Shown: positions 4,426 to 54,892 of the stretch, piece by piece
Position numbering within the stretch: position 1 is the stretch's first letter
Layout: every line of letters starts with the position of its first letter
NCBI GenBank assembly: GCA_022709735.1
Contig: JAKLIG010000004.1
Span: forward strand, 240 to 64,239
Direction of reading: 5' to 3'
From: Patescibacteria group bacterium
GTDB lineage: Bacteria > Patescibacteriota > Minisyncoccia > Moranbacterales > UBA2206
DNA length: 64,000 bases
Translations under genes and position numbers: made by a program
The notes under the pieces: model-generated
Seen by the model: only the letters and a program-made list of their open reading frames with translations
Database searches by the model: none
Told to the model about the DNA's origin: nothing

Positions 4426-6300
4426 TTATCCTAAAACCGCCTTAATTCTTCTCACTCCCGCGCTGGATGATTCTTCTTTGGTTATTTTAAATTTTCCAAT
4501 TTCGGAAGTATTTTTCACATGCGGACCACCGCAAAGTTCAATGCTGAAATCGCCGATTTTATATACTTTCACTATCTCGCCATATTTTGCCGGATCAAAA
4601 GAAATCTTGGCGATTTTCAGGGCTTCGTCTTTTTTCATTTCAATCATTTCGACTGGAATATTTTCTTGAATCTTTTGATTGACCAAATCTTCTATCTTTT
4701 TAATTTGTTCGGGCGTCAGTTTCTCGGGATAATTGAAATCAAATCGCAATCTTTCCGCATTAATGTTGCTACCTTTTTGATAAATCTCTTGACCTAATAT
4801 TTCTCTGATCGCTGCCAAAAGCAAATGCGTCGCCGTGTGATATTTCACAGAAATTTCTCCCGCATCCGCAAGTCCTCCCTTAAACATTCCGGCAGAGGCA
4901 GTTCTCGAGAGTTCTTGATGCTGCTTAAAATCTCTTTCGATAAAATCTTTTTCTAATTTTTTTCCTAAAGAATCGCTGGTTGACTTGCTTAATCCTACGC
5001 CCTTAAATAATTCTAAAAAAAACATGTCATGAGGATATCCATGCGTAGATTCAAGATTAAAAGCAGTTGCTGTGATTGGAGTACCTTCTGCTAATATTTT
5101 TTTATTCATAAATTCGTCAACTTTATCGCTTGAAATTCCTTTTTCCATCATAGATGCTAACAGAAATAATTTATATCTCTCTACTTCTTTATTTTTTAAT
5201 TTTAAAACCTTATTATCTGATAATAATTCATTAAATTTATCTTCTTCCTTTTCTAAAACACCTAAAATATTTTCTTTTAAAATTTCCGGATAAATATCTT
5301 CATAAATTTCTTGTACTACCTTTGCAATTTCATTTATAAAATTTTCTTTAATTCCAATCAGATGACCTTGCCGAATTGCCCGGCGAATTAGTCGGCGCAA
5401 AACATAACCGCGTTGAACATTGGAAGGAGTTATGCCGTCAGCAATAATAAATACGCTGGCTATTATATGATCAGCAATAATTCTAAATTCTTTTTTATTG
5501 TCTTCATATTTTTTTCCGGAAAGTTCTTCAATTTTCTGAATTATCGGCCAGAAAAGTTCTGTTTTATAATTATCATCCAGTCCATTTATCGCCACCAAGA
5601 CTCGCACCAATCCCATCCCAGTATCCACATTCTTTTGCTCAAGTTTTTCATAAGTTCCATCTTTCTTTTTGCCATATTCCATAAAAACATCGTTCCAGAT
5701 TTCTACCCAAAGATCATTGTCATCATTGAAAGATTCAGGAACATTTTCCGGATCTCCAACCCAATAAAAAATTTCGCTGTCTGGTCCGCATGGTCCGGTT
5801 TCTCCCGCTGGTCCCCACCAATTATTTTTTTTGGGAAGTTTTGCAATTCTTTTTTCCGAAACCCCGAGACTTTTCCAAATTTCATAAGCCTCGCTGTCGA
5901 AAGGCGCGTCTTTATCGCCGGCAAAAACGGAAACAGCAATTCTATTTTTATCTAGTCCCAACCATTCCGGCGAAGTCAAAAATTCATAGCTCCACTCAAT
6001 CGCTTCTTTTTTGAAATAATCACCCAGCGACCAATTGCCCAGCATTTCAAAAAAAGTATGATGCGTTGCATCGCCCACTTCATCAATGTCTCCTGTTCGA
6101 ATACATTTTTGGCAATTGGCCAATCTTTTTCCTTGCGGATGTTTTTCGCCTGAAAGATATGGCACCAAAGGATGCATCCCAGCAGTCGTAAAAAGCACCG
6201 TCGGATCATTTTCCGGAATCAAAGAAGCCGAAGGGATAATCGCGTGCCCATGTTTTTCAAAAAATTCCAAGTATTTTTGACGAAGTTCGCTAGCAGTCAT
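4426..6300 (-). CDS. alaS: Alanyl-tRNA synthetase, short form (catalytic + tRNA-recognition + editing domains; the C-terminal C-Ala domain appears absent)
   Basis: N-terminus MTASELRQKYLEFFEKHGHAIIPSASLIPENDPTVLFTTAGM; editing-domain motifs HTATHLL and CGGPHV; 624 aa versus ~870 aa in typical bacteria. Confidence 0.9.
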   Translation of the reverse strand: MTASELRQKYLEFFEKHGHAIIPSASLIPENDPTVLFTTAGMHPLVPYLSGEKHPQGKRLANCQKCIRTGDIDEVGDATHHTFFEMLGNWSLGDYFKKEAIEWSYEFLTSPEWLGLDKNRIAVSVFAGDKDAPFDSEAYEIWKSLGVSEKRIAKLPKKNNWWGPAGETGPCGPDSEIFYWVGDPENVPESFNDDNDLWVEIWNDVFMEYGKKKDGTYEKLEQKNVDTGMGLVRVLVAINGLDDNYKTELFWPIIQKIEELSGKKYEDNKKEFRIIADHIIASVFIIADGITPSNVQRGYVLRRLIRRAIRQGHLIGIKENFINEIAKVVQEIYEDIYPEILKENILGVLEKEEDKFNELLSDNKVLKLKNKEVERYKLFLLASMMEKGISSDKVDEFMNKKILAEGTPITATAFNLESTHGYPHDMFFLELFKGVGLSKSTSDSLGKKLEKDFIERDFKQHQELSRTASAGMFKGGLADAGEISVKYHTATHLLLAAIREILGQEIYQKGSNINAERLRFDFNYPEKLTPEQIKKIEDLVNQKIQENIPVEMIEMKKDEALKIAKISFDPAKYGEIVKVYKIGDFSIELCGGPHVKNTSEIGKFKITKEESSSAGVRRIKAVLG

Positions 6301-8155: not shown

Positions 8156-10072
8156 CTATTCATCTTGATTTGTTTTAGTTTTTTGTATTAGATTCCTAAC
8201 TTCGCCTAAATTAATTTCCGGTTTTTTTCGGATAGATTTAAATTTCTTCGGCGCGATGTGCGCCATCTGGGAAAGACTCATTGGTTTATCCGAAGAAACA
8301 AGTGCGTTTGGTTGCAGTTCTTCTTTTTTATTCTCTTTTCTGCTATATTTTTCAGAATTTCTATTCTGCGCAATATAATTTTTCTTTTCCTCCTTTTCTT
8401 TCTGACTCACCGCTCTTGCTCTTTGATAATCCTTGAGGCATTCTTTGCAAAAAGTCGGACGACTTGGATCAGGCTGGAACGGCACTTGGATTTTTTCTTC
8501 ACAGCTACTGCAAACCGCGTCATACATTTTTTTTTCTTCCGTTTTTGGCGTAGCATTTACAATCACTGTATCATTTTTTGGCAAAACTGCATCATTATTC
8601 AGAGCTGACCTTTTTATTTCTGGTTTAGTGCTAATAATATTTTTTTCTTTCGGCTGTTGAATAATTTCTTTTCCATTTGCGCTTTCTTTTTCAAATTCTT
8701 CAAAATTAAACATTCCACTCCAGCGGGCAATTTTTTCCTCGACTTCCGCCCTGGATTTTCCGTAGCGCTCGCGCGAAACCTTCACAACCTTTTCCATATT
8801 ATCTTGGGTATCTGACAAATTAACTGGCGGAAGAGCAGTTGCTGAAAAAGCATCTCCGGCAATGCCATCAATCATAAGTTTGAGATACATCTGGTATTTG
8901 GATAAATTTACAATGTCATTCATCATAAAAACCGGCTCAAATTCTTTTTCCAGCGCTTCAGCGTCTTCCGCTCCTACTCGAAAAGATACGATTGTTCCAA
9001 CGTTTCCAAAAATTGCATCGCGCACTGTAGAATTTCCGTCAAAAATCAATTGATTTATATATTGGTGCGCTAAAATCAAAGCTAAGCGATATTTTCTTGC
9101 TTCCGACAAAATATTTGCAAAAGATTCAGTTGCAAAGTTTTGGAATTCATCCACATAAAGATAGAAATCTTTTCTTTCTTCTTCTGGAATTTCCACTCGT
9201 CCCATTGCCGCCAGCTGAATTTTAGTGACAATCATTCCGCCAAGGAGCCTCATTGCATCTTCGCCGATTCGCCCCTTGGAAAGATTGACAATCAAAATTT
9301 TCTGATTGTCCATAATGTCTCGCATATCGATTGTGGATTTTGGCTGACCAACAATATGGCGAATGACAAAAGACGACAAAAATTGTCCGACTTTATTTTG
9401 AATGGCTGCGACCGCTTCTTTTCTAAATTTATCCTCCCATTTGTCAAATTCATTGAGCCAGAAAGATTTTACAACTGGGTCTTTTATTTTTGGATAAACG
9501 CGCTTTCGATAATCCTTGTCGCTCATCATACGATTAACTCCAAGCATAGTTGAGCCGGGATAATCCAAGAGAGCCAGAATTGTATTGTTCAAAATATATT
9601 CCATTCTCGGACTCCAAACATCCGGCCAGATTTTCTTGAAAACTCCCATCATTCCGCTAGCAACCAGATTTTTTTTGTCTTCATCGACTGATTCTAAAAT
9701 ATTAAAAGCGATTGGAAAATCTTTGTCGGCCGGATTGAAATAAACCACATCGTTAATGCGGTCAGGCGGAACAGCGCGAAGCATTTTTTCCGCTCCTTCG
9801 CCATGTGGATCAACATAGCAAACTCCATACCCCGCCCGGATATCTTGAATTGCCATATTTTCCAACATATTGGATTTTCCCATTCCGGTTTTTCCAATAA
9901 CATACATATGACGACGGCGGTCGTCTTTTTTTATTCCAAAGCTTCTCTCCTGATTTCTGAAATTAGTTTTAGCAAAAAAGTTGATCTCGGACATTTTTTC
10001 AAAAATGGACGAGATCATCCTGAGCGAAGCTTCAATGTAATCATTGAAGCGAGTCGAAGGATCCCGTACCAA
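8156..10072 (-). CDS. TraG/TraD/VirD4-family (FtsK-HerA clade) P-loop ATPase, soluble, with C-terminal CxxC...CxxC zinc ribbon
   Basis: Walker A VIGKTGMGKS, Walker B LYVDEFQNF, C-terminal CSSCEEK...CKECLKDY; no N-terminal TM helices. Confidence 0.7.
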   Translation of the reverse strand: MVRDPSTRFNDYIEASLRMISSIFEKMSEINFFAKTNFRNQERSFGIKKDDRRRHMYVIGKTGMGKSNMLENMAIQDIRAGYGVCYVDPHGEGAEKMLRAVPPDRINDVVYFNPADKDFPIAFNILESVDEDKKNLVASGMMGVFKKIWPDVWSPRMEYILNNTILALLDYPGSTMLGVNRMMSDKDYRKRVYPKIKDPVVKSFWLNEFDKWEDKFRKEAVAAIQNKVGQFLSSFVIRHIVGQPKSTIDMRDIMDNQKILIVNLSKGRIGEDAMRLLGGMIVTKIQLAAMGRVEIPEEERKDFYLYVDEFQNFATESFANILSEARKYRLALILAHQYINQLIFDGNSTVRDAIFGNVGTIVSFRVGAEDAEALEKEFEPVFMMNDIVNLSKYQMYLKLMIDGIAGDAFSATALPPVNLSDTQDNMEKVVKVSRERYGKSRAEVEEKIARWSGMFNFEEFEKESANGKEIIQQPKEKNIISTKPEIKRSALNNDAVLPKNDTVIVNATPKTEEKKMYDAVCSSCEEKIQVPFQPDPSRPTFCKECLKDYQRARAVSQKEKEEKKNYIAQNRNSEKYSRKENKKEELQPNALVSSDKPMSLSQMAHIAPKKFKSIRKKPEINLGEVRNLIQKTKTNQDE

Positions 10073-29241: not shown

Positions 29242-29325
29242 GCGACTCTAATTTACGAATTAACACTCGAATTATTCGAATGAATTCGAGTCATTCGGGT
29301 GAAGATTCGCATCATTCGAGTCGCT
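29242..29325 (+). repeat. 83-nt hairpin-forming intergenic repeat, copy B (ATTCGAGT-type); its last bases overlap the leuS stop codon
   Basis: ~84% identity to 13615..13697, same orientation. Confidence 0.8.
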
Positions 29326-32195
29326 TAAATAACAACATTTATAAGTCTTCCTTTTACAAAAATAAATTTTTTGATTTTTTTATCTAAAATATAATTTTTG
29401 ATTTTTTCCGATTCCATTATAATCTTTTTTGCTTCAACTTCTGAAATATCGGCGCTTACTTTTATTTTATCGCGCACTTTACCATTAATTTGCACAACCA
29501 TTTCGATTTCTTCGTCCTTTATGAGTTTTGGATCATATTTTGGCCAAGATTCATTAAAGATTGCTTTCTTATTTCCCAGTTGGCTCCATAACTCTTCGGA
29601 TATATGCGGAGCGAAAGGACTCAAGAGAAGTAAGAAGTAAGAATAATGAAGCAAGCTTATTTTTTCTTCTTTTTCAAATGCATTGGCCAAAATCATAAGC
29701 GAGCTAATCGCTGTATTAAATCTCATCGCTTCTATATCTTCAGTAACTTTTTTAATAGTCTTGTGAACTAAGGTGTCGAGTTTTGTATTTTGATTATTCG
29801 GATTTTGAATTTTATTTTGTAATTTCCAAACCCGTTCAAGAAATCTATAAATCCCTACAATCCCTTTTGTCTGCCAAGGTTTCATATCTTCCAGTGGTCC
29901 CATAAACATTTCGAAACACCGAAGCGAATCAGCCCCGAATTGACTCACAACATCATCCGGGTTGACCACATTGCCCTTGGATTTTGACATCTTTGTTCCG
30001 TCTTCCGCCAAAATTATCCCCTGATGGCGCAGTTTCAAAAATGGCTCGTCAAAATTCAGATAACCTAAATTATGCAAGACTTTTGTGAAAAATCTGGCAT
30101 AAAGAAGATGAAGAACGCTGTGCTCCGCTCCGCCGACATAGAGATCGACTGGTAGCCATTTTTCAAGATTTTTTTCCGAAGCAAATTCTTTTTTATTTTT
30201 CGGGTCGCTATAGCGAAGATAATACCAGCTTGAACAAACAAAAGTATCCATCGTGTCTGATTCCCGACTGGCTTTTCCTCCACAATTCGGACACTTCACA
30301 TTTTGGAATTTTTTACTGTATTTTAGCGGCGATTCTCCAGTCGGTTTGAAATCCACATCATCCGGCAAAACTACCGGCAAATCTTTTTCCGGCACTGGCC
30401 ATGCGCCCTGCCCGTCGAAGCCTTGGCGAAGTCGGGCGCATTTCTCGCAATAAATAATTGGAATTGGCGCGCCCCAATATCGTTGCCTTGAAACTAACCA
30501 ATCGCGTAGCTTGTAGTTTATTTTCTTCTGTCCTAATTTATTTTTTTCAAGCCACGCTGTTAATTTTTCGCGTGCTTGTTCGGAAGTAAGCCCGTCATAC
30601 TTTTCAGAATTAATTAGAAATCCATCAGCAACAAAAGCCATTAAATTAAATAATGAAAAATCATGCACATCTTTCGGCCTTAATTTCCCAAGCCTATCAG
30701 CCTCTGTTTTTTTAAACTTTAAAATACTTTCGGGAGTAAAGGCGCTAAATTCAGTATTCTCTAATTTATTCGTTATTTTTTCTCCATCATAACAACCGAA
30801 ATCAATATGAAATTTACCATTATCAGCTACATATAATTCAAATCTTTCGTCAGGATTTTTTTTAATTTCAAAACTTTCTTTTTTAAAATAATCTTTCCAA
30901 AATTCAATTTCATTTTTTTTAACCTGTATATCAACATCTACATGACTTCGAGTTATCATGCCATAAGCAATATCTAACCCCAAGCCACCATCAAAAATTA
31001 TTTTTTTATTATTTTCTTTAGCAAATTTAACAATTTTTTTAGCAAAACTAAAAATTTCCGAAGTTAAACTATCCGGTTTATCAAAAGCAATAACTGCTTT
31101 TATTGGCAATTTATATTTCTTTGCAAATTCAAAATCCCGTTCATCGTGAGCTGGAACGGCCATCACTGCGCCTGTGCCATATTGCGATAAAACATAATCA
31201 GCCACATAAAGTGGCAATGCTTCGCCATTAAAAGGATTGATAACTTTTATCCCCTTGAGCTCCACTCCCGTTTTGACTTTTGCTTCCATTCGATCAAGGT
31301 CAGTTTTTTTCTTTGTTTCCGCTAAGTATTTTTTTATTTCTTCATAATTCTTAATTCTTTCTTCACACTTCTTTATTATTTCATGTTCCGGCGCGACAAC
31401 CACATAAGTCATCCCGAAGACCGTGTCTATCCTTGTGGTATAAATTTCAATAAAATCATTCGAGTCTTCGATCTGCATTTTTAATTGTGTCCCTTCTGAT
31501 TTTCCAATCCAATTTTGTTGAAGTATTTTTGTTGACTGTGGCCAATCAATTTTTTCTAGTCCGCTTAACAAGCCAGAAGTTTTTCCCCTGTCCTCGATAA
31601 AATCAGTGATACGAAAAAACCACTGTTCCAAATCTTTTTGCGCCACTTCTGATTCGCAACGCTCGCATTTTCCATCCACGACTTGTTCATTGGCCAAAAC
31701 AGTCTGGCACTTCGGACACCAATTAACTTTCGCTTTCTTTTTATATGCCAAACCGTTTTTATAAAAAAGAAGAAAAAGCCACTGCGTCCATTTATAATAT
31801 TTCTGATCTGATGAATTGACTTCGCGCGACCAATCGTAAGAAAAACCCATTGAATTAATTTGGCGCTTGAAAGTTTCTATCGCTTTTTGAGTCGTTTTCT
31901 TTGGATGAATCCCGGTCTTTATCGCATAATTTTCCGCCGGTAGCCCGAAAGCATCAAAACCTTGCGGATGAAGCACATTTTTCCCATTCATTCGAAGATA
32001 ACGAGAATATATGTCAGTCGCCGTATATGACTCCACATGCCCGACATGAAGCCCTTCTCCGGACGGATAAGGAAACATGTCTAAAATAAAGCTTTTTTTC
32101 TGTTTTGAGCTATCTTGGGCCTTGCATAAATCAAGGTTTTTCGCCCAAAATTTCTGCCATTTAACTTCGATTTCCTTAGGGTTATATTTGTCCAT
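29325..32195 (-). CDS. leuS: Leucyl-tRNA synthetase carrying a ~150-aa insertion (aa ~375-522) with a nucleotidyltransferase-like signature inside the editing (CP1) region
   Basis: HIGH-region FPYPSGEGLHVGHV; KMSKS; editing-domain blocks TTRIDTVFGMTYVVVAPEH and GTGAVMAVPAHDERDFEFAKKY; insert contains IIFDGGLGLDIAYGMITRSHVDVDIQV. Confidence 0.9.
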   Translation of the reverse strand: MDKYNPKEIEVKWQKFWAKNLDLCKAQDSSKQKKSFILDMFPYPSGEGLHVGHVESYTATDIYSRYLRMNGKNVLHPQGFDAFGLPAENYAIKTGIHPKKTTQKAIETFKRQINSMGFSYDWSREVNSSDQKYYKWTQWLFLLFYKNGLAYKKKAKVNWCPKCQTVLANEQVVDGKCERCESEVAQKDLEQWFFRITDFIEDRGKTSGLLSGLEKIDWPQSTKILQQNWIGKSEGTQLKMQIEDSNDFIEIYTTRIDTVFGMTYVVVAPEHEIIKKCEERIKNYEEIKKYLAETKKKTDLDRMEAKVKTGVELKGIKVINPFNGEALPLYVADYVLSQYGTGAVMAVPAHDERDFEFAKKYKLPIKAVIAFDKPDSLTSEIFSFAKKIVKFAKENNKKIIFDGGLGLDIAYGMITRSHVDVDIQVKKNEIEFWKDYFKKESFEIKKNPDERFELYVADNGKFHIDFGCYDGEKITNKLENTEFSAFTPESILKFKKTEADRLGKLRPKDVHDFSLFNLMAFVADGFLINSEKYDGLTSEQAREKLTAWLEKNKLGQKKINYKLRDWLVSRQRYWGAPIPIIYCEKCARLRQGFDGQGAWPVPEKDLPVVLPDDVDFKPTGESPLKYSKKFQNVKCPNCGGKASRESDTMDTFVCSSWYYLRYSDPKNKKEFASEKNLEKWLPVDLYVGGAEHSVLHLLYARFFTKVLHNLGYLNFDEPFLKLRHQGIILAEDGTKMSKSKGNVVNPDDVVSQFGADSLRCFEMFMGPLEDMKPWQTKGIVGIYRFLERVWKLQNKIQNPNNQNTKLDTLVHKTIKKVTEDIEAMRFNTAISSLMILANAFEKEEKISLLHYSYFLLLLSPFAPHISEELWSQLGNKKAIFNESWPKYDPKLIKDEEIEMVVQINGKVRDKIKVSADISEVEAKKIIMESEKIKNYILDKKIKKFIFVKGRLINVVI

Positions 32196-50581: not shown

Positions 50582-53500
50582 TTATTTTTGCAGTAACGCT
50601 TTCATTTCTCTGTTAAAATTTAAAATTTCCTGCTGAATTACATTGATGATCATTTTCTCACTACTGCCCTGGATGTAATATCTTCCTTCTCTGGCCTGCT
50701 TCCCCCTATCTATATTATCAAAAATTGTTCTTTTTGGCGCATCTAAGTCGCTTTCATTATATTCAGTCCCATTTTCATTTTTAATTTTAGTGCTATCAAA
50801 TACTGATTTGGCATTTACGGAATCTGCTAAAGTTTTCGCCGGTGGCTTTAAATATAGATTATGAATTTTGGTAAAAATATTAACCAACTTCGAATCTATT
50901 TGTTTATAAAAACTCTTAGGATCAATTTCGATTTCTTTCATATATTTCTGGATTGAATCGTATTCATCTCCATAGCTTTTTATCACACTGCTAAATCTCT
51001 TCTGATTTTGTCTTTTCTCCGGTTGTTCTCCAGAACTTTCTGCGATGGTTTCATTTTCAACAAAATTTAAATTGTGATCTTCGGTCTTATCTAATATTTT
51101 TTTCTGAATTTTCACAAAATTAAATATCATCTCCCAAATTTTTTGGCCGTTAATTTCTAATTTTGTCATGCCATGATTTCTGCAAAAATCCTTGAAAGAT
51201 TCTATGTTTTTAATTTCTTCTGCAGAAATTTTTTCAATCACTTCTGGCGTAATTGAAGTATACTTATCCAACGCTTGTTTTGCCATATTTAAGTTGAAAA
51301 TTGAAACCACACACCTTTCAAGCGATTCCGCTCTATCAATTGAAAAAGCGCGAAATTCTGTTGTATCAGTTTTATTGTCAAAAATTTTTTCACAATCGTT
51401 GCCCTTGGCCCTTATATTTGAATATCTGTTAACTTGATTCACTTCCTCTCCAGCATTTATTCCTCCAAGATCGGCCGCCACTAGAGAATTTTGAATAAAA
51501 TTAGCATACCCGTCATTTTTGATTCCAAATTCTCCACCTAGAGTTATATGAAAACTTCTAGAGCCTTTTTCATAATCCGTATCTGCAAATGTATGTTCAA
51601 AATTCAAATCTACAAAATCTAAATCGCTTAAAAGCTTCATTTCCAAAAGTAAAAGATATGGATTATCTGTCGGTTTTGTAGCTATTTCATGAATAGCATC
51701 TCGCCCTTTGGCAATTCCGCTATAACAGGACAAAATTTCAATGTCTTTTTTATAATCGCTGGCGGTTCTTTTGCCATATCCTTCTGCAATAGATTTAGTT
51801 ACTTCATATTCCATGCCAATAGAAGTCCGGAGTCCTTCTGGAATATTTTCTTTTTTATACAAATCAATAACTGTATTATATTTTATCAATTTTTCATAGA
51901 CACTTTTCAAAATAGATTTGATGTCATTTTCCGTTTTAGCATAATAAGCCGTGTTTATTTCTCTGGCAATTAATAAAGTTAAAATCGTTTTGCCTTTTTC
52001 GCTGATTTCATTATCACTTACAAATTTTTTGAAAGTTTCCCCGATTGGAACCTCCTTGTCTACCATCTGGTCAAGAACTTCAAAATTACCCTTGCTTATT
52101 ACCAGAGAAAATACCTCGCCTAACTGCAAAACGGTACTTCTTTCGCTTTCTCTTGTTATTTTGTCAACCGAACCTGAATAAAATTCTTTTAGCCTTTCAC
52201 TATTTTCGGCTCCACCCAATATTGCCAAAGCAATGTTGGTTCCGAATTTTTTGAATGTCTGAATTACATCTTTATTAAGATAAGAAAAGCGTTTTTCATC
52301 TTCCAAAAACCATTCCTTTGTCCATGGGATAGGCTGAGTTATAAGTCCACGATCTTTCTCAATTTCTATAAGCGTTTCATTTTCCGCCAAATAATCACAG
52401 AAATTTCCCTTAGTAATAGGGAAATTTTCTATATCCTTTTCGTCAAACAGACCATTTTCAAGGCAAACTTTGAAAGCTGGAAGATATAGTGATTGACCGC
52501 TTGAATTGTGAATAATATTTTTTAAATTATTTGTTAGAAGATACTTATCAATATCACTTTTAAATATTTCTGTTAATTCTGCCGACTGTTTTTCATTAAT
52601 TTCCCCAAGACAAGCAAATTTATCATACATAAAAATATTACTTTCGTAGTGATTTTTATTGTCTAGGATGCCCAGCTGTTTTGCCCTAGAAAAAGATTCT
52701 GAATCATTACACCAACCTATCAATGATTTGACTTGTTCGTTTTCTGCAACTCCATAATTCCAGTTGATTGCTTCCCGCAAAATACCTAAATCATTATTAT
52801 CTAATGCAAATTGCAAAAATTTTTCGTCTTTCAATATGCAGGAAATTGATCCATATTTATAAACATTCAAATTATATTCTTCTGTCTGCTTACTTAATTC
52901 GCCTCCTAAAATACCAAGCTGTTTTGCTTTGGAAAAATTTTCTTGGTCATTATACCAGCCGGCTATAGATTTATAATTTTCGTCTTCTAAATCTCCGAAT
53001 TTTGATTTAATTGCTTTTTCTAAAATTCCTAGATCGCCGTTATCTAATGCAAATTGTAAAAACTTTTCATCCTTGAATATATTAGCAATTGCATCATAAT
53101 TGTATATATTTGAAGAATATTCTCTGGTCTGGTCATCTATTTCTCCGCCTAAAATTCCAAGCGATATTGCTTTTTCAAAAATTTTAGGATTTTCATACCA
53201 TTTTTTTATAAATGGTATTTTTGAATTAGTATATCCGTAAGAAATAGCTTTCAGCACATCAAAGCCGGTTTTTTTATGCAAATTAGCCAGCCAATAAATA
53301 AATCCTGGTTCATATTTTTTTGATAGAAAGAATAGGTTTTCTATCTTCTTCTTTTTATTACTATTTCCAATGTTTCCTTCTAAATCTTTTTCGGCGATTA
53401 TTCTTGATTCAAACTTTGGATCGATTCTATTTTTCAATATGCTGATTACAATTTCTGATAGATGATTCAAATCCTTAACTTCAAAATTATTCTTGATAAA

Positions 53501-54892
53501 CTTTACAAAATCAGGCCGGGAAGATAAAAATTTCAGATAAGCTGCCATTTCATGAATCCCTGCTAAACCTGAAATAGAGACCTTCAAATCATTTTCAAGT
53601 TTAAAATCCTTCGCTATTTCTTCCAAGAATGGCATTTTTTCTTTCAGATATTCGAGTGTTGATTTTTTTCTTAATCTTCCCTCGCTTCCATGCGTTAGGG
53701 GAAATCCGTCGGAGGCATACAATAAATATGAAATAATTTCCGATGAACTACTGAATTTTAAATTGTTGTCTTCAATAAATTTATTATTTATCTCGGTTTC
53801 TTCGATTTTTTTTCTCCCGTTTTTTACTAAATCGGCAAAGTAGGTAAATTCAGTAATATTTAATTCGGATCTGTTTTCCCCCTTTACTAAATTTATTTTA
53901 TTCAAAATATCTACAGCATATTTAGCATCTTCTAAATCTAAATTTCGCAATGATTCACAAAGATATGGATTTCTTAGGATATAATTCGACACAGAATCCC
54001 TAAACCAAGTCGTTTTAAAAAATGCTTGTTTTTTTAATTTTTTTGTTTTTTCAACTGCCGATAAAACAACATTCAAAAAATCATCGCCAAGATTCTGGAT
54101 AACTTCACAATAATCAGCCACTTCGTCTGCATACAAAAGATCATTTTCCTTAAGATTCTCCGATGCAGATAAAACCTTTTCAAAAATATCAATATTCTTT
54201 ATCCTATCAAAAAAATCATCATTTAGACGATACAGCACGACTCCGCATTCAAGCAACCGACTGACGATATAGGCTTCTTTTTCTGATTTTATTTTACTTC
54301 TAACTTCAAAAGCGCTCTCCAGTGTCTTAATATCTGGTTTTTTATTTCGCTCCTTAATTTTTTGAAACAATAAATTAAAACATTCATCCTTTTCAATAAT
54401 TTCGTCTATTGCCTGAAAAAACTCTTCGGAAAAATTATTCCCCTCTGATTTTATTTTGATTGAATAGCCCATTTCTAGAGCTTGAAACATCTCTTCTAAT
54501 ACAGGATATTTAGAAATATCTAAATTTTTATTTTCCAAACCTGTTTTTAAAATATCTATGATATATTGGTTATTTTCTTCATTAGCTAAATCCATTAACT
54601 CTTCCCAATTATCAATTGGACATTTTTTAGGATATTCCATAGGCTTTGGCAATTTGAATTTTTCTGGCACTCTCAAAACTGCATCGACTTCTTCTCTCTT
54701 CCGATGCATTTCAGACAATAATTCACTCTCAAAACCAGCCGGATCTGCTTGAAAATCGGATGTTATTTTTTCTTTTTTCAACTCTTCTTTTCCGATAAGA
54801 GAATTATTTTTAGTAAAAATATTTCCTTCAAAAGACATATGGTTAAAATTAAAAACCTCCTTCCAACAACTCAAAGACACTGTGTCTTCCAA
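50582..54892 (-). CDS. Giant hypothetical protein (1436 aa) with three ~70-aa internal tandem repeats (KQLGILGGEL..EEYNLNVYKYG..ILKDEKFLQFALDNNDLGIL) and a C-terminal region with GxExE / H.T.G motifs
   Basis: Single uninterrupted ORF; repeats seen in the translation. Confidence 0.7.
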   Translation of the reverse strand: MEDTVSLSCWKEVFNFNHMSFEGNIFTKNNSLIGKEELKKEKITSDFQADPAGFESELLSEMHRKREEVDAVLRVPEKFKLPKPMEYPKKCPIDNWEELMDLANEENNQYIIDILKTGLENKNLDISKYPVLEEMFQALEMGYSIKIKSEGNNFSEEFFQAIDEIIEKDECFNLLFQKIKERNKKPDIKTLESAFEVRSKIKSEKEAYIVSRLLECGVVLYRLNDDFFDRIKNIDIFEKVLSASENLKENDLLYADEVADYCEVIQNLGDDFLNVVLSAVEKTKKLKKQAFFKTTWFRDSVSNYILRNPYLCESLRNLDLEDAKYAVDILNKINLVKGENRSELNITEFTYFADLVKNGRKKIEETEINNKFIEDNNLKFSSSSEIISYLLYASDGFPLTHGSEGRLRKKSTLEYLKEKMPFLEEIAKDFKLENDLKVSISGLAGIHEMAAYLKFLSSRPDFVKFIKNNFEVKDLNHLSEIVISILKNRIDPKFESRIIAEKDLEGNIGNSNKKKKIENLFFLSKKYEPGFIYWLANLHKKTGFDVLKAISYGYTNSKIPFIKKWYENPKIFEKAISLGILGGEIDDQTREYSSNIYNYDAIANIFKDEKFLQFALDNGDLGILEKAIKSKFGDLEDENYKSIAGWYNDQENFSKAKQLGILGGELSKQTEEYNLNVYKYGSISCILKDEKFLQFALDNNDLGILREAINWNYGVAENEQVKSLIGWCNDSESFSRAKQLGILDNKNHYESNIFMYDKFACLGEINEKQSAELTEIFKSDIDKYLLTNNLKNIIHNSSGQSLYLPAFKVCLENGLFDEKDIENFPITKGNFCDYLAENETLIEIEKDRGLITQPIPWTKEWFLEDEKRFSYLNKDVIQTFKKFGTNIALAILGGAENSERLKEFYSGSVDKITRESERSTVLQLGEVFSLVISKGNFEVLDQMVDKEVPIGETFKKFVSDNEISEKGKTILTLLIAREINTAYYAKTENDIKSILKSVYEKLIKYNTVIDLYKKENIPEGLRTSIGMEYEVTKSIAEGYGKRTASDYKKDIEILSCYSGIAKGRDAIHEIATKPTDNPYLLLLEMKLLSDLDFVDLNFEHTFADTDYEKGSRSFHITLGGEFGIKNDGYANFIQNSLVAADLGGINAGEEVNQVNRYSNIRAKGNDCEKIFDNKTDTTEFRAFSIDRAESLERCVVSIFNLNMAKQALDKYTSITPEVIEKISAEEIKNIESFKDFCRNHGMTKLEINGQKIWEMIFNFVKIQKKILDKTEDHNLNFVENETIAESSGEQPEKRQNQKRFSSVIKSYGDEYDSIQKYMKEIEIDPKSFYKQIDSKLVNIFTKIHNLYLKPPAKTLADSVNAKSVFDSTKIKNENGTEYNESDLDAPKRTIFDNIDRGKQAREGRYYIQGSSEKMIINVIQQEILNFNREMKALLQK

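Follow-up and report, generated by a model that had tools for sequence, protein, structure and literature searches.

What is a segment of about 150 amino acids, with the signature of a nucleotidyltransferase, doing in the middle of the editing domain of a leucyl-tRNA synthetase (LeuRS)? The question arises from a stretch of 64,000 nucleotides, hereafter the window, of contig JAKLIG010000004.1 from a Patescibacteria group bacterium (assembly GCA_022709735.1), in which the gene leuS carries such a segment in frame. An earlier note, made from the sequence alone, had pointed out the insertion and its resemblance to lincosamide and aminoglycoside nucleotidyltransferases. The analysis described here indicates a complete nucleotidyltransferase domain of Pfam family PF10706, nested in a loop of CP1 (connective polypeptide 1), the editing domain of LeuRS. 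The reading we favor, with a probability of roughly 0.55, is that this domain is an exchangeable cassette, one of several that occupy the same loop in related bacteria, and that its acceptor is most likely a small molecule.

Judged by its sequence, the host protein, LeuS, is an otherwise normal LeuRS. Pfam assigns it the domains tRNA-synt_1, tRNA-synt_1_2 (PF13603, the editing domain, E 3e-60) and Anticodon_1, and a phmmer search of PDB aligns it to Thermus thermophilus LeuRS (1h3n) with E 5e-225. The HIGH and KMSKS signatures, the T-rich editing motif, the universal editing-site Asp and the anticodon-binding domain are all in place, and that Asp, D351, is invariant in our LeuS alignment A3. 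A database protein of identical sequence, P0001, is labeled class I tRNA ligase family protein, from Candidatus Moranbacteria bacterium. It is present on three contigs, and the same architecture is found in independent assemblies from several projects. The leucine-specific domain is apparently absent from LeuS around residues ~725-745, where Thermus residues ~594-635 are skipped while the query runs on continuously; a passage of PMC3643597 describes a comparable replacement, by a tetrapeptide, in Mycoplasma mobile LeuRS.

The alignment with Thermus LeuRS breaks at residue 370 of the query (Thermus 363) and restarts at residue 520 (Thermus 376). Some 149 residues thus take the place of a loop that in Thermus LeuRS counts 12 residues, so that LeuS is longer there by ~137. 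The earlier note had set the limits at 30630..31073 (residues 375-522) and counted ~135 extra residues, essentially the same segment, and the strings that it quoted (IIFDGGLGLDIAYGMITRSHVDVDIQV, FELYVADNGKFHIDF and DVHDFSLFNL) are all found in the sequence. Alignments to Thermus LeuRS and to LeuS relatives agree in showing an in-frame insertion into the CP1 editing domain after K-A-V-I, with no misalignment, and the segment did not resolve into a standard LeuS subdomain devoid of nucleotidyltransferase similarity, a possibility the note had itself raised.

Pfam scores the insert by itself at 37.3 bits (E 3.7e-9) for PF10706 (Aminoglyc_resit, the aminoglycoside-2''-adenylyltransferase family), whose gathering score is 21, and the whole LeuS still reaches 33.9 bits against that cutoff. 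A family profile from alignment A1, which comprises the window insert, other LeuS inserts and free-standing homologues, finds ANT(2'')-Ia in PDB with E 6.5e-14 and Lnu(A) with E 2e-13, the latter match spanning residues 4-161 of 162. The AlphaFold model of the isolated insert, computed from the same alignment, has a predicted local distance difference test score (pLDDT) of 94.3 and a predicted template modeling score of 0.88. The insert has the Pol-beta nucleotidyltransferase fold (alpha1-beta1-alpha2-beta2-X-beta4-beta3) followed by the C-terminal beta-hairpin/helix domain, the combination that defines the family. Membership in the Pol-beta superfamily, as first proposed, is therefore borne out and can be narrowed to the ANT(2'')/Lnu(A) family, and the fold that had seemed complete does include the C-terminal beta-hairpin, the helical part and the K-D-x-H-D motif. 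The insert is a complete globular nucleotidyltransferase domain of the ANT(2'')-Ia/Lnu(A) family.

The residues expected of an active enzyme are present as well. Structural and mutagenesis work on ANT(2'')-Ia identified R40 and H42 as binding the triphosphate, D44 and D46 as binding two Mg2+ ions, and D86 as the catalytic base (PMC4313920). Alignment places the corresponding residues of the insert as listed in Table 1, with both the Mg2+-binding residues and the catalytic base conserved. G403-G404, R416, H418, D420 and D422 are invariant in alignments A2 and A4, of the insert with its closest homologues, while D465 falls in the invariant column D95 of both and, from its position in the strand, would be the counterpart of D86. 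The motif R-x-K-D-x-H-D is kept in the free-standing homologues. Because all the catalytic residues and the C-terminal motif are present, the domain has every feature needed for catalysis, and this conservation favors a catalytically active insert over a degenerate one. Among the acidic residues singled out previously, D420 and D422 stand; the one numbered D401 is properly D402, and the catalytic trio consists of D420, D422 and D465.

Table 1. Positions in the window of leuS, its signature motifs, the insert and the predicted active-site residues of the insert.
Feature	Window position	Strand	Remark
leuS	29325..32195	minus	one unbroken open reading frame of 956 codons; bacterial-type leucyl-tRNA synthetase (class Ia), bears the insert
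HIGH signature (HVGH, residues 50-53)	32037..32048	minus	sequence motif
T-rich editing motif TTRIDT (residues 253-258), CP1	31422..31439	minus	motif as defined in PMC3747510
A-H-D351 (residues 349-351), universal editing-site Asp	31143..31151	minus	19 residues upstream of the insert
ANT(2'')/Lnu(A)-type nucleotidyltransferase insert, lineage A (residues 370-519)	30639..31088	minus	limits from the break in the Thermus alignment
G403-G404, hG[GS] nucleotide-binding turn	30984..30989	minus	aligned with G27-G28 of ANT(2'')-Ia
R416-S-H418-V-D420-V-D422, triphosphate Arg/His and two Mg2+-binding Asp	30930..30950	minus	aligned with R40, H42, D44 and D46 of ANT(2'')-Ia
D465 in FHIDF, third carboxylate, predicted catalytic base	30801..30803	minus	aligned with the Asp of YLDIHP in Lnu(A)
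K508-D-V-H511-D512, C-terminal family motif	30660..30674	minus	aligned with T-D-H-F-D of Lnu(A)
KMSKS signature (residues 735-739)	29979..29993	minus	sequence motif

The characterized enzymes ANT(2'')-Ia (AadB) and Lnu(A)/LinA (PDB 4WQK, 4XJE, 4FO1 and 4WH5) have the same two-part fold of ~150-180 residues, the same GG turn, Arg/His pair, DxD and third Asp, and a related C-terminal motif, D-x-[HF]-D. The insert, however, is only 15-18% identical to them and is shorter in the stretch from the third catalytic strand to the C-terminal helices, and they are free-standing whereas it is nested inside another enzyme. Free-standing proteins are also its best matches in sequence databases. An exhaustive HMMER search of 1.84 billion representative proteins returned 37 matches to the insert, the best of them free-standing proteins of 130-200 residues that themselves belong to PF10706, with alignments that run from end to end (for example, insert residues 5-146 against residues 12-156 of a 161-residue protein). 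A word-indexed homologue search gave no match for the insert alone, and with a profile it gave free-standing PF10706 proteins only. Such homologues are common and are not adjacent to leuS. One of these proteins, P0126, is a natural fusion of a nucleotidyltransferase of the insert's family with a GNAT acetyltransferase. Another, P0125 (locus L009, 3627-4486), overlaps a glyoxalase/bleomycin-resistance-like gene by 4 nt; close by in the same locus are pilin genes for type IV secretion as well as an AbiEii gene. The insert carries a net charge of about -1 (pI 6.4), but net charge and pI vary so widely among the inserts and the free-standing homologues that they do not discriminate between an RNA and a small-molecule acceptor.

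Where in the editing domain does this enzyme sit? The CP1 structure from Streptococcus pneumoniae has two bacterial peripheral insertions, I2b and I4b, of which I4b is non-conserved in bacteria and forms a long loop that joins helices alpha2 and alpha3 (PMC3747510). In that structure Thr373 lies ~4 A from the ligand in the editing pocket (PMC3747510). By residue numbering, the insert of the window would occupy the same position, between the helix downstream of the conserved Asp and the G-x-L-I-N-S segment. When residues are counted from that Asp (D347 in S. pneumoniae, D351 in the window), Thr373 belongs to the short loop whose place the guests take, and for this reason the nucleotidyltransferase probably has its anchor points at the pocket's rim. 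In the full-length AlphaFold model a helix at residues 352-360 precedes the site and the next confident helix, at 538-551, follows it. The I4b elements described so far measure a few tens of residues and form loops or short helices without an independent fold; in this LeuS, by contrast, there is an autonomous enzyme domain of ~150 residues, and, again unlike described I4b, different lineages carry different and unrelated enzyme domains.

This last point emerged from relatives of the window protein. Matches in a search with the whole LeuS fell into two size classes. The best 120 LeuS proteins from Patescibacteria were aligned, and the loop was cut out between the conserved K-x-V-I and [AF]-T-[DE]-D-G-x-L-I-N-S. 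In 69 of the 120 the loop has 13-55 residues and holds no domain. The other 51 have an insert of at least 121 residues at exactly the same loop, and these inserts fall into six unrelated sequence clusters. Most frequent is a NUDIX domain (PF00293, E 5e-13), found in 33 proteins (including P0004, P0017 and P0020); ten have a PF10706 nucleotidyltransferase of a second lineage, designated lineage B; and the window protein is the sole one of the 120 with lineage A. The rest have a 121-residue family (P0044, P0050 and P0054), a family of 132-134 residues (the 132-residue family; P0003 and P0074), a divergent NUDIX domain (P0008) or a singleton of 127 residues (P0051). Neither the 121- nor the 132-residue family has a family match, and the three unassigned insert families (loci including L007 and L008) gave no significant match to Pfam, NCBIfam or PADLOC.

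The NUDIX inserts (example locus L006, 3001-5970) are themselves variable. The strict Nudix box G-x5-E-x7-R-E-x2-E-E-x-G fits 15 of the 34 sequences, a count that includes the divergent and non-matching P0008; of two non-matching inserts inspected by eye, one retains REVLEE and the other has RAEILEE. Their best similarity in NCBIfam is a weak match to the RNA pyrophosphohydrolase RppH. A third PF10706 lineage occurs at the same loop in P0157, from a genome of ~51% GC. This protein is annotated with 839 residues because of a miscalled start; the real open reading frame encodes 1085 residues (L005, 2263..5520), a complete LeuS. It had been the sole apparent truncation, and a split-gene origin of the nested architecture, with a gene trapped between two halves of leuS and then fused to both, was rejected accordingly. 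Other parts of LeuS can also hold additional domains. P0074 and P0120 have an alpha/beta-hydrolase (PF12697, PF00561) of ~200 residues in the C-terminal half, so that P0074 bears two guests simultaneously, and the N-terminal half of P0106 contains a Ham1/ITPase domain (PF01725).

The guests do not follow the history of their hosts. On a neighbor-joining tree of the LeuS core (784 columns), the loop states are thoroughly intermixed, with 38 changes by parsimony. The five cores nearest to that of the window (80-82% identical) carry, at the loop, the 132-residue family, a NUDIX domain, nothing, nothing, and lineage B. Since the gene order atpD-atpC-leuS-NTP_transferase is common to the window, P0002 (lineage B), P0004 (NUDIX) and P0003 (132-residue family), these are orthologous leuS genes with different guests. 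The window insert, for its part, scores 64 bits against a free-standing protein, but only 15-25 bits against the inserts of lineage B in the LeuS proteins closest to its host. When GTDB species genomes were scanned with a DNA pattern, a single close relative of the insert came up, at the same loop of a 968-residue LeuS from a Candidatus Kerfeldbacteria bacterium, whose gene neighborhood is unlike that of the window; a similar scan of metagenomes met the Kerfeldbacteria insert sequence again. The window and Kerfeldbacteria proteins share 68% identity in the insert and 56-57% in the LeuS core, while P0002 shares 78-82% with the window protein in the core and 24% in the insert. When the nucleotidyltransferase domains were placed on a bootstrapped neighbor-joining tree, support was 99.5% for lineage A and likewise for lineage B, but 3% for the two together and 0% for monophyly of all the LeuS-embedded domains. 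The NUDIX guests behave similarly: over 528 pairs, the correlation between insert and core identity is weak (rho 0.30). There are pairs whose cores are 85% identical and whose inserts are 32% identical, and others whose inserts are more conserved than the core (92-94% versus 82-85%). From these comparisons we conclude that guests have probably been gained, lost and exchanged horizontally at the loop, in an uncertain number of events, and that the nucleotidyltransferase appears to have entered LeuS more than once, or to have been replaced there.

Base composition also sets the insert apart. Its G+C content at third codon positions (GC3) is 0.161, against 0.37 and 0.35 in the flanking parts of leuS, and only 0.3% of 149-codon windows in the large open reading frames of the 64-kb window reach a value that low. 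In Kerfeldbacteria the corresponding figures are 0.187 for the insert and 0.45 and 0.44 for the flanks. The GC3 of the guest lies below that of the LeuS core in seven of seven loci (the window, L003, L001, L006, L007, L008 and L005), by 0.06-0.27; the dip is extreme for lineage A and smaller in the five other loci. One further measure was discarded: third-position identity between the window and Kerfeldbacteria genes (0.735 in the inserts, 0.46 in the core) had been considered as evidence of recent transfer, but where GC3 is below 0.2 in both sequences, composition by itself yields matches at that rate. The junctions of the insert share a 10-nt direct repeat with one mismatch, CAAAAGC[C/A]AT (30632-30641 and 31082-31091, 450 nt apart), which encodes M/I-A-F on the minus strand. 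As a candidate target-site duplication it was rejected, being probably a chance occurrence; ten similar repeats lie in the same 800 AT-rich bases. The other loci examined had no junction repeat and no shared nucleotide motif.

Both the relationships and the base composition of the insert depart from those of the host gene, and the insert has had a separate history. In the explanation that we prefer, the I4b loop would be a permissive slot that has received accessory enzyme domains again and again, and guests would have been exchanged horizontally among the leuS genes of the candidate phyla radiation (CPR), probably by recombination through the conserved flanks. The nucleotidyltransferase is predicted to bind a nucleoside triphosphate through R416, H418 and the GG turn, to bind two Mg2+ ions through D420, D422 and D465, and to transfer a nucleoside monophosphate to a hydroxyl group of an acceptor held in the cleft between its two sub-domains, while LeuRS would go on charging and proofreading tRNA-Leu. 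The acceptor is most likely a small molecule, a xenobiotic or antibiotic-like compound, as it is for the characterized members of the family, and the domain would then represent an accessory function carried by an essential and constitutively expressed gene. A small-molecule acceptor is favored because the nearest characterized relatives modify antibiotics, because one free-standing relative is fused to an acetyltransferase and another overlaps a glyoxalase/bleomycin-resistance-like gene, and because a patchy, exchanged distribution, with 69 of 120 relatives free of any guest, looks like that of an accessory trait.

Several points weigh against this explanation or limit it. The GC3 dip, as it is seen in all seven loci, may in part be general to less-constrained segments and no mark of foreign origin; an AT-rich pool of donors could likewise account for the general dip. 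The trees rest on short, divergent sequences, so that independent acquisition of lineages A and B is favored and no more, and lineage A was found in two LeuS proteins only. That the insert loop is I4b follows from residue numbering rather than superposition, and in the full-length AlphaFold model residues 400-520 have pLDDT values of 30-65, which makes their geometry relative to the editing pocket uninformative; the low values are attributable to unrelated guests sharing those alignment columns. Finally, the NCBIfam models for Lnu(C), Lnu(AN2), Lnu(D), Lnu(P) and ANT(2'')-Ia score the insert at 15-33 bits against cutoffs of 300-350. Since the similarity is at the level of the family only, neither lincosamide nor aminoglycoside specificity should be assumed, and by its sequence the insert is a PF10706 family member and no known resistance allele.

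Other explanations were weighed against the exchangeable cassette with a small-molecule acceptor. Hardly any credence is due to an artefact, in the form of a chimeric assembly or an unrecognized frameshift, or to a removable element, an intein-like sequence spliced out of the mature protein. Inteins do come to mind, given one precise, conserved site in an essential gene, a patchy distribution, a phylogeny discordant with that of the host, and deviant base composition. The reading frame, however, is continuous over 956 codons, three contigs encode the protein unchanged, independent assemblies show its architecture, and the insert is a complete globular enzyme fold. LeuS has no Hint or intein matches in Pfam, and the junctions, I-A-F-D ... 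M-A-F-V-A-D-G, lack both an N-terminal Cys/Ser and a C-terminal His-Asn followed by Cys/Ser/Thr. The frame, the independent assemblies, the missing Hint motifs and the junction residues together exclude artefact and intein alike. Unlike an intein, with its splicing motifs, Hint fold or homing endonuclease, the insert belongs to an ordinary enzyme family and is presumably retained. There is slightly more room, though still little, for a catalytically silent module with a structural or regulatory role, whether as a lid on the editing pocket or as a surface that binds a partner or a host-cell component; its descent from an enzyme would then have no bearing. Peripheral CP1 insertions have been reported to influence editing, and the eukaryotic/archaeal I4ae lies over the pocket's opening (PMC3747510); the site tolerates very different folds, as would fit a role based on bulk or steric effects; and part of lineage B has SG in place of the GG turn and a replacement for the His. 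Yet every catalytic residue is kept in both the window and Kerfeldbacteria inserts, which have diverged by 32% overall, and the Arg, the DxD, the third carboxylate and KDxxD are kept in ten of ten lineage-B inserts. That some NUDIX inserts are better conserved than the core of their hosts likewise argues for selection on the domain's own function.

If the domain is active, its acceptor could be something other than a small molecule at large. It is conceivable, but on balance rather unlikely, that the nucleotidyltransferase cooperates with the editing domain at the acceptor end of tRNA and adds or restores nucleotides on tRNA-Leu or on tRNAs generally. The reaction might be repair, or modification in the manner of MenT/AbiEii, with the NUDIX cassettes removing pyrophosphate-linked adducts from RNA ends, and we consider this extension similarly doubtful. 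The site, by numbering, is I4b, where one residue lies ~4 A from the ligand of the editing pocket (PMC3747510); the commonest alternative cassette, NUDIX, scores best, though weakly, to RppH models; and a repeated choice of nucleotide-handling enzymes beside the tRNA-end pocket looks non-random. There are also weak profile matches to AbiEii, all below threshold (E 0.0005-0.06), among them 13.8 bits in Pfam (E 0.058, cutoff 22.5) and 13-18 bits in PADLOC. The structural similarity to MenT/AbiEii toxins is real but lower than that to ANT(2'')/Lnu(A), the similarity to CCA-adding enzymes is also the lower one, and here the domain lies inside leuS, with no antitoxin gene and no toxin context. Nor does the slightly acidic insert offer the basic surface expected of an RNA binder. 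At least three insert families at the site lack any nucleotide-enzyme signature, and since 69 of 120 relatives have no insert, no function that LeuRS requires can be involved. A bolder and less probable version of the same idea treats the CPR I4b loop as a protein-level integration site, where cassettes (NUDIX, at least three nucleotidyltransferase lineages and several unknown folds) would be swapped horizontally, with intein-like dynamics but no splicing, and would act on the tRNA acceptor end at the editing site. After the action of tRNA-targeting toxins, for instance, such cassettes might repair the nucleotide or pyrophosphate adducts on tRNA or strip them off, and LeuRS would become a platform for the surveillance of tRNA ends. 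Lastly, there is a slim chance that the guests confer target-tethered immunity, the nucleotidyltransferase (NUDIX in relatives) inactivating a natural LeuRS inhibitor at the place where it binds. The inhibitor might, with equally small probability, be a mimic of the aminoacyl-adenylate or a binder of the editing site. Characterized family members are antibiotic-inactivating enzymes, the editing pocket beside the site is a known drug-binding site (PMC3747510), and a patchy, horizontally exchanged distribution is typical of resistance determinants. On the other side, nothing links the PF10706 family to LeuRS inhibitors, which makes the idea purely inferential; the free-standing homologues, as noted, are common and do not lie beside leuS; and unrelated cassettes without a detoxification signature occupy the same site.

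Aminoacyl-tRNA synthetases are textbook modular enzymes known to have accreted domains, and in LeuRS the editing domain too is an inserted module. Both families met here, nucleotidyltransferase and LeuRS, are likewise known; what is unexpected is the nesting of one in the other, the variety of guests at one site, and the mobility of those guests. The protein sequences are public and have precomputed matches to PF10706 or PF00293 attached, under annotation names ('class I tRNA ligase family protein' or 'leucyl-tRNA synthetase') that make no mention of the embedded enzyme. The earlier note knew of no described example, and we too found, in the open-access full-text literature, no description of LeuRS with NUDIX or nucleotidyltransferase inserts. 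A 2026 survey of domain insertions classed the LeuRS editing domain as insertion-exclusive, with zero instances as a host in 213 events (PMC13114784). In the proteins described here the LeuRS editing domain acts as a host, which runs against that generalization.

The surroundings of leuS in the window are those of an ordinary CPR chromosome, with genes for ATP synthase, GlmS, Dxs, TopA, RelA/SpoT and alanyl-tRNA synthetase (AlaRS). The usual bacterial AlaRS has a length of ~870 residues. The one in the window (4426..6300, minus strand) has only 624, with the tRNA_SAD editing motif at its end, and apparently lacks the C-terminal C-Ala domain. The window also encodes a TrwB/VirD4-like coupling protein of type IV secretion (8156..10072, minus strand), which bears a treble-clef zinc finger and points to conjugation or DNA-uptake machinery near housekeeping genes. 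Farther along, an open reading frame of 1436 residues with a TTG start (50582..54892, minus strand) has no Pfam match at E 1e-5 or better.

The LeuS of the window thus presents three levels of nesting, an enzyme domain in an editing domain in a catalytic domain, with an innermost guest that varies among close relatives. If the loop does hold exchangeable cassettes, it would be a natural system of in-frame gain, loss and exchange of whole domains at a single loop of an essential gene, and would bear on the origin of new multidomain architectures. For protein engineering, the loop would be a naturally validated permissive site beside a drug-binding pocket. Should the guests act on the tRNA end or on LeuRS inhibitors, they would represent a new kind of functional coupling for a synthetase. 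The finding also bears on how the ultra-small genomes of the CPR carry accessory functions.

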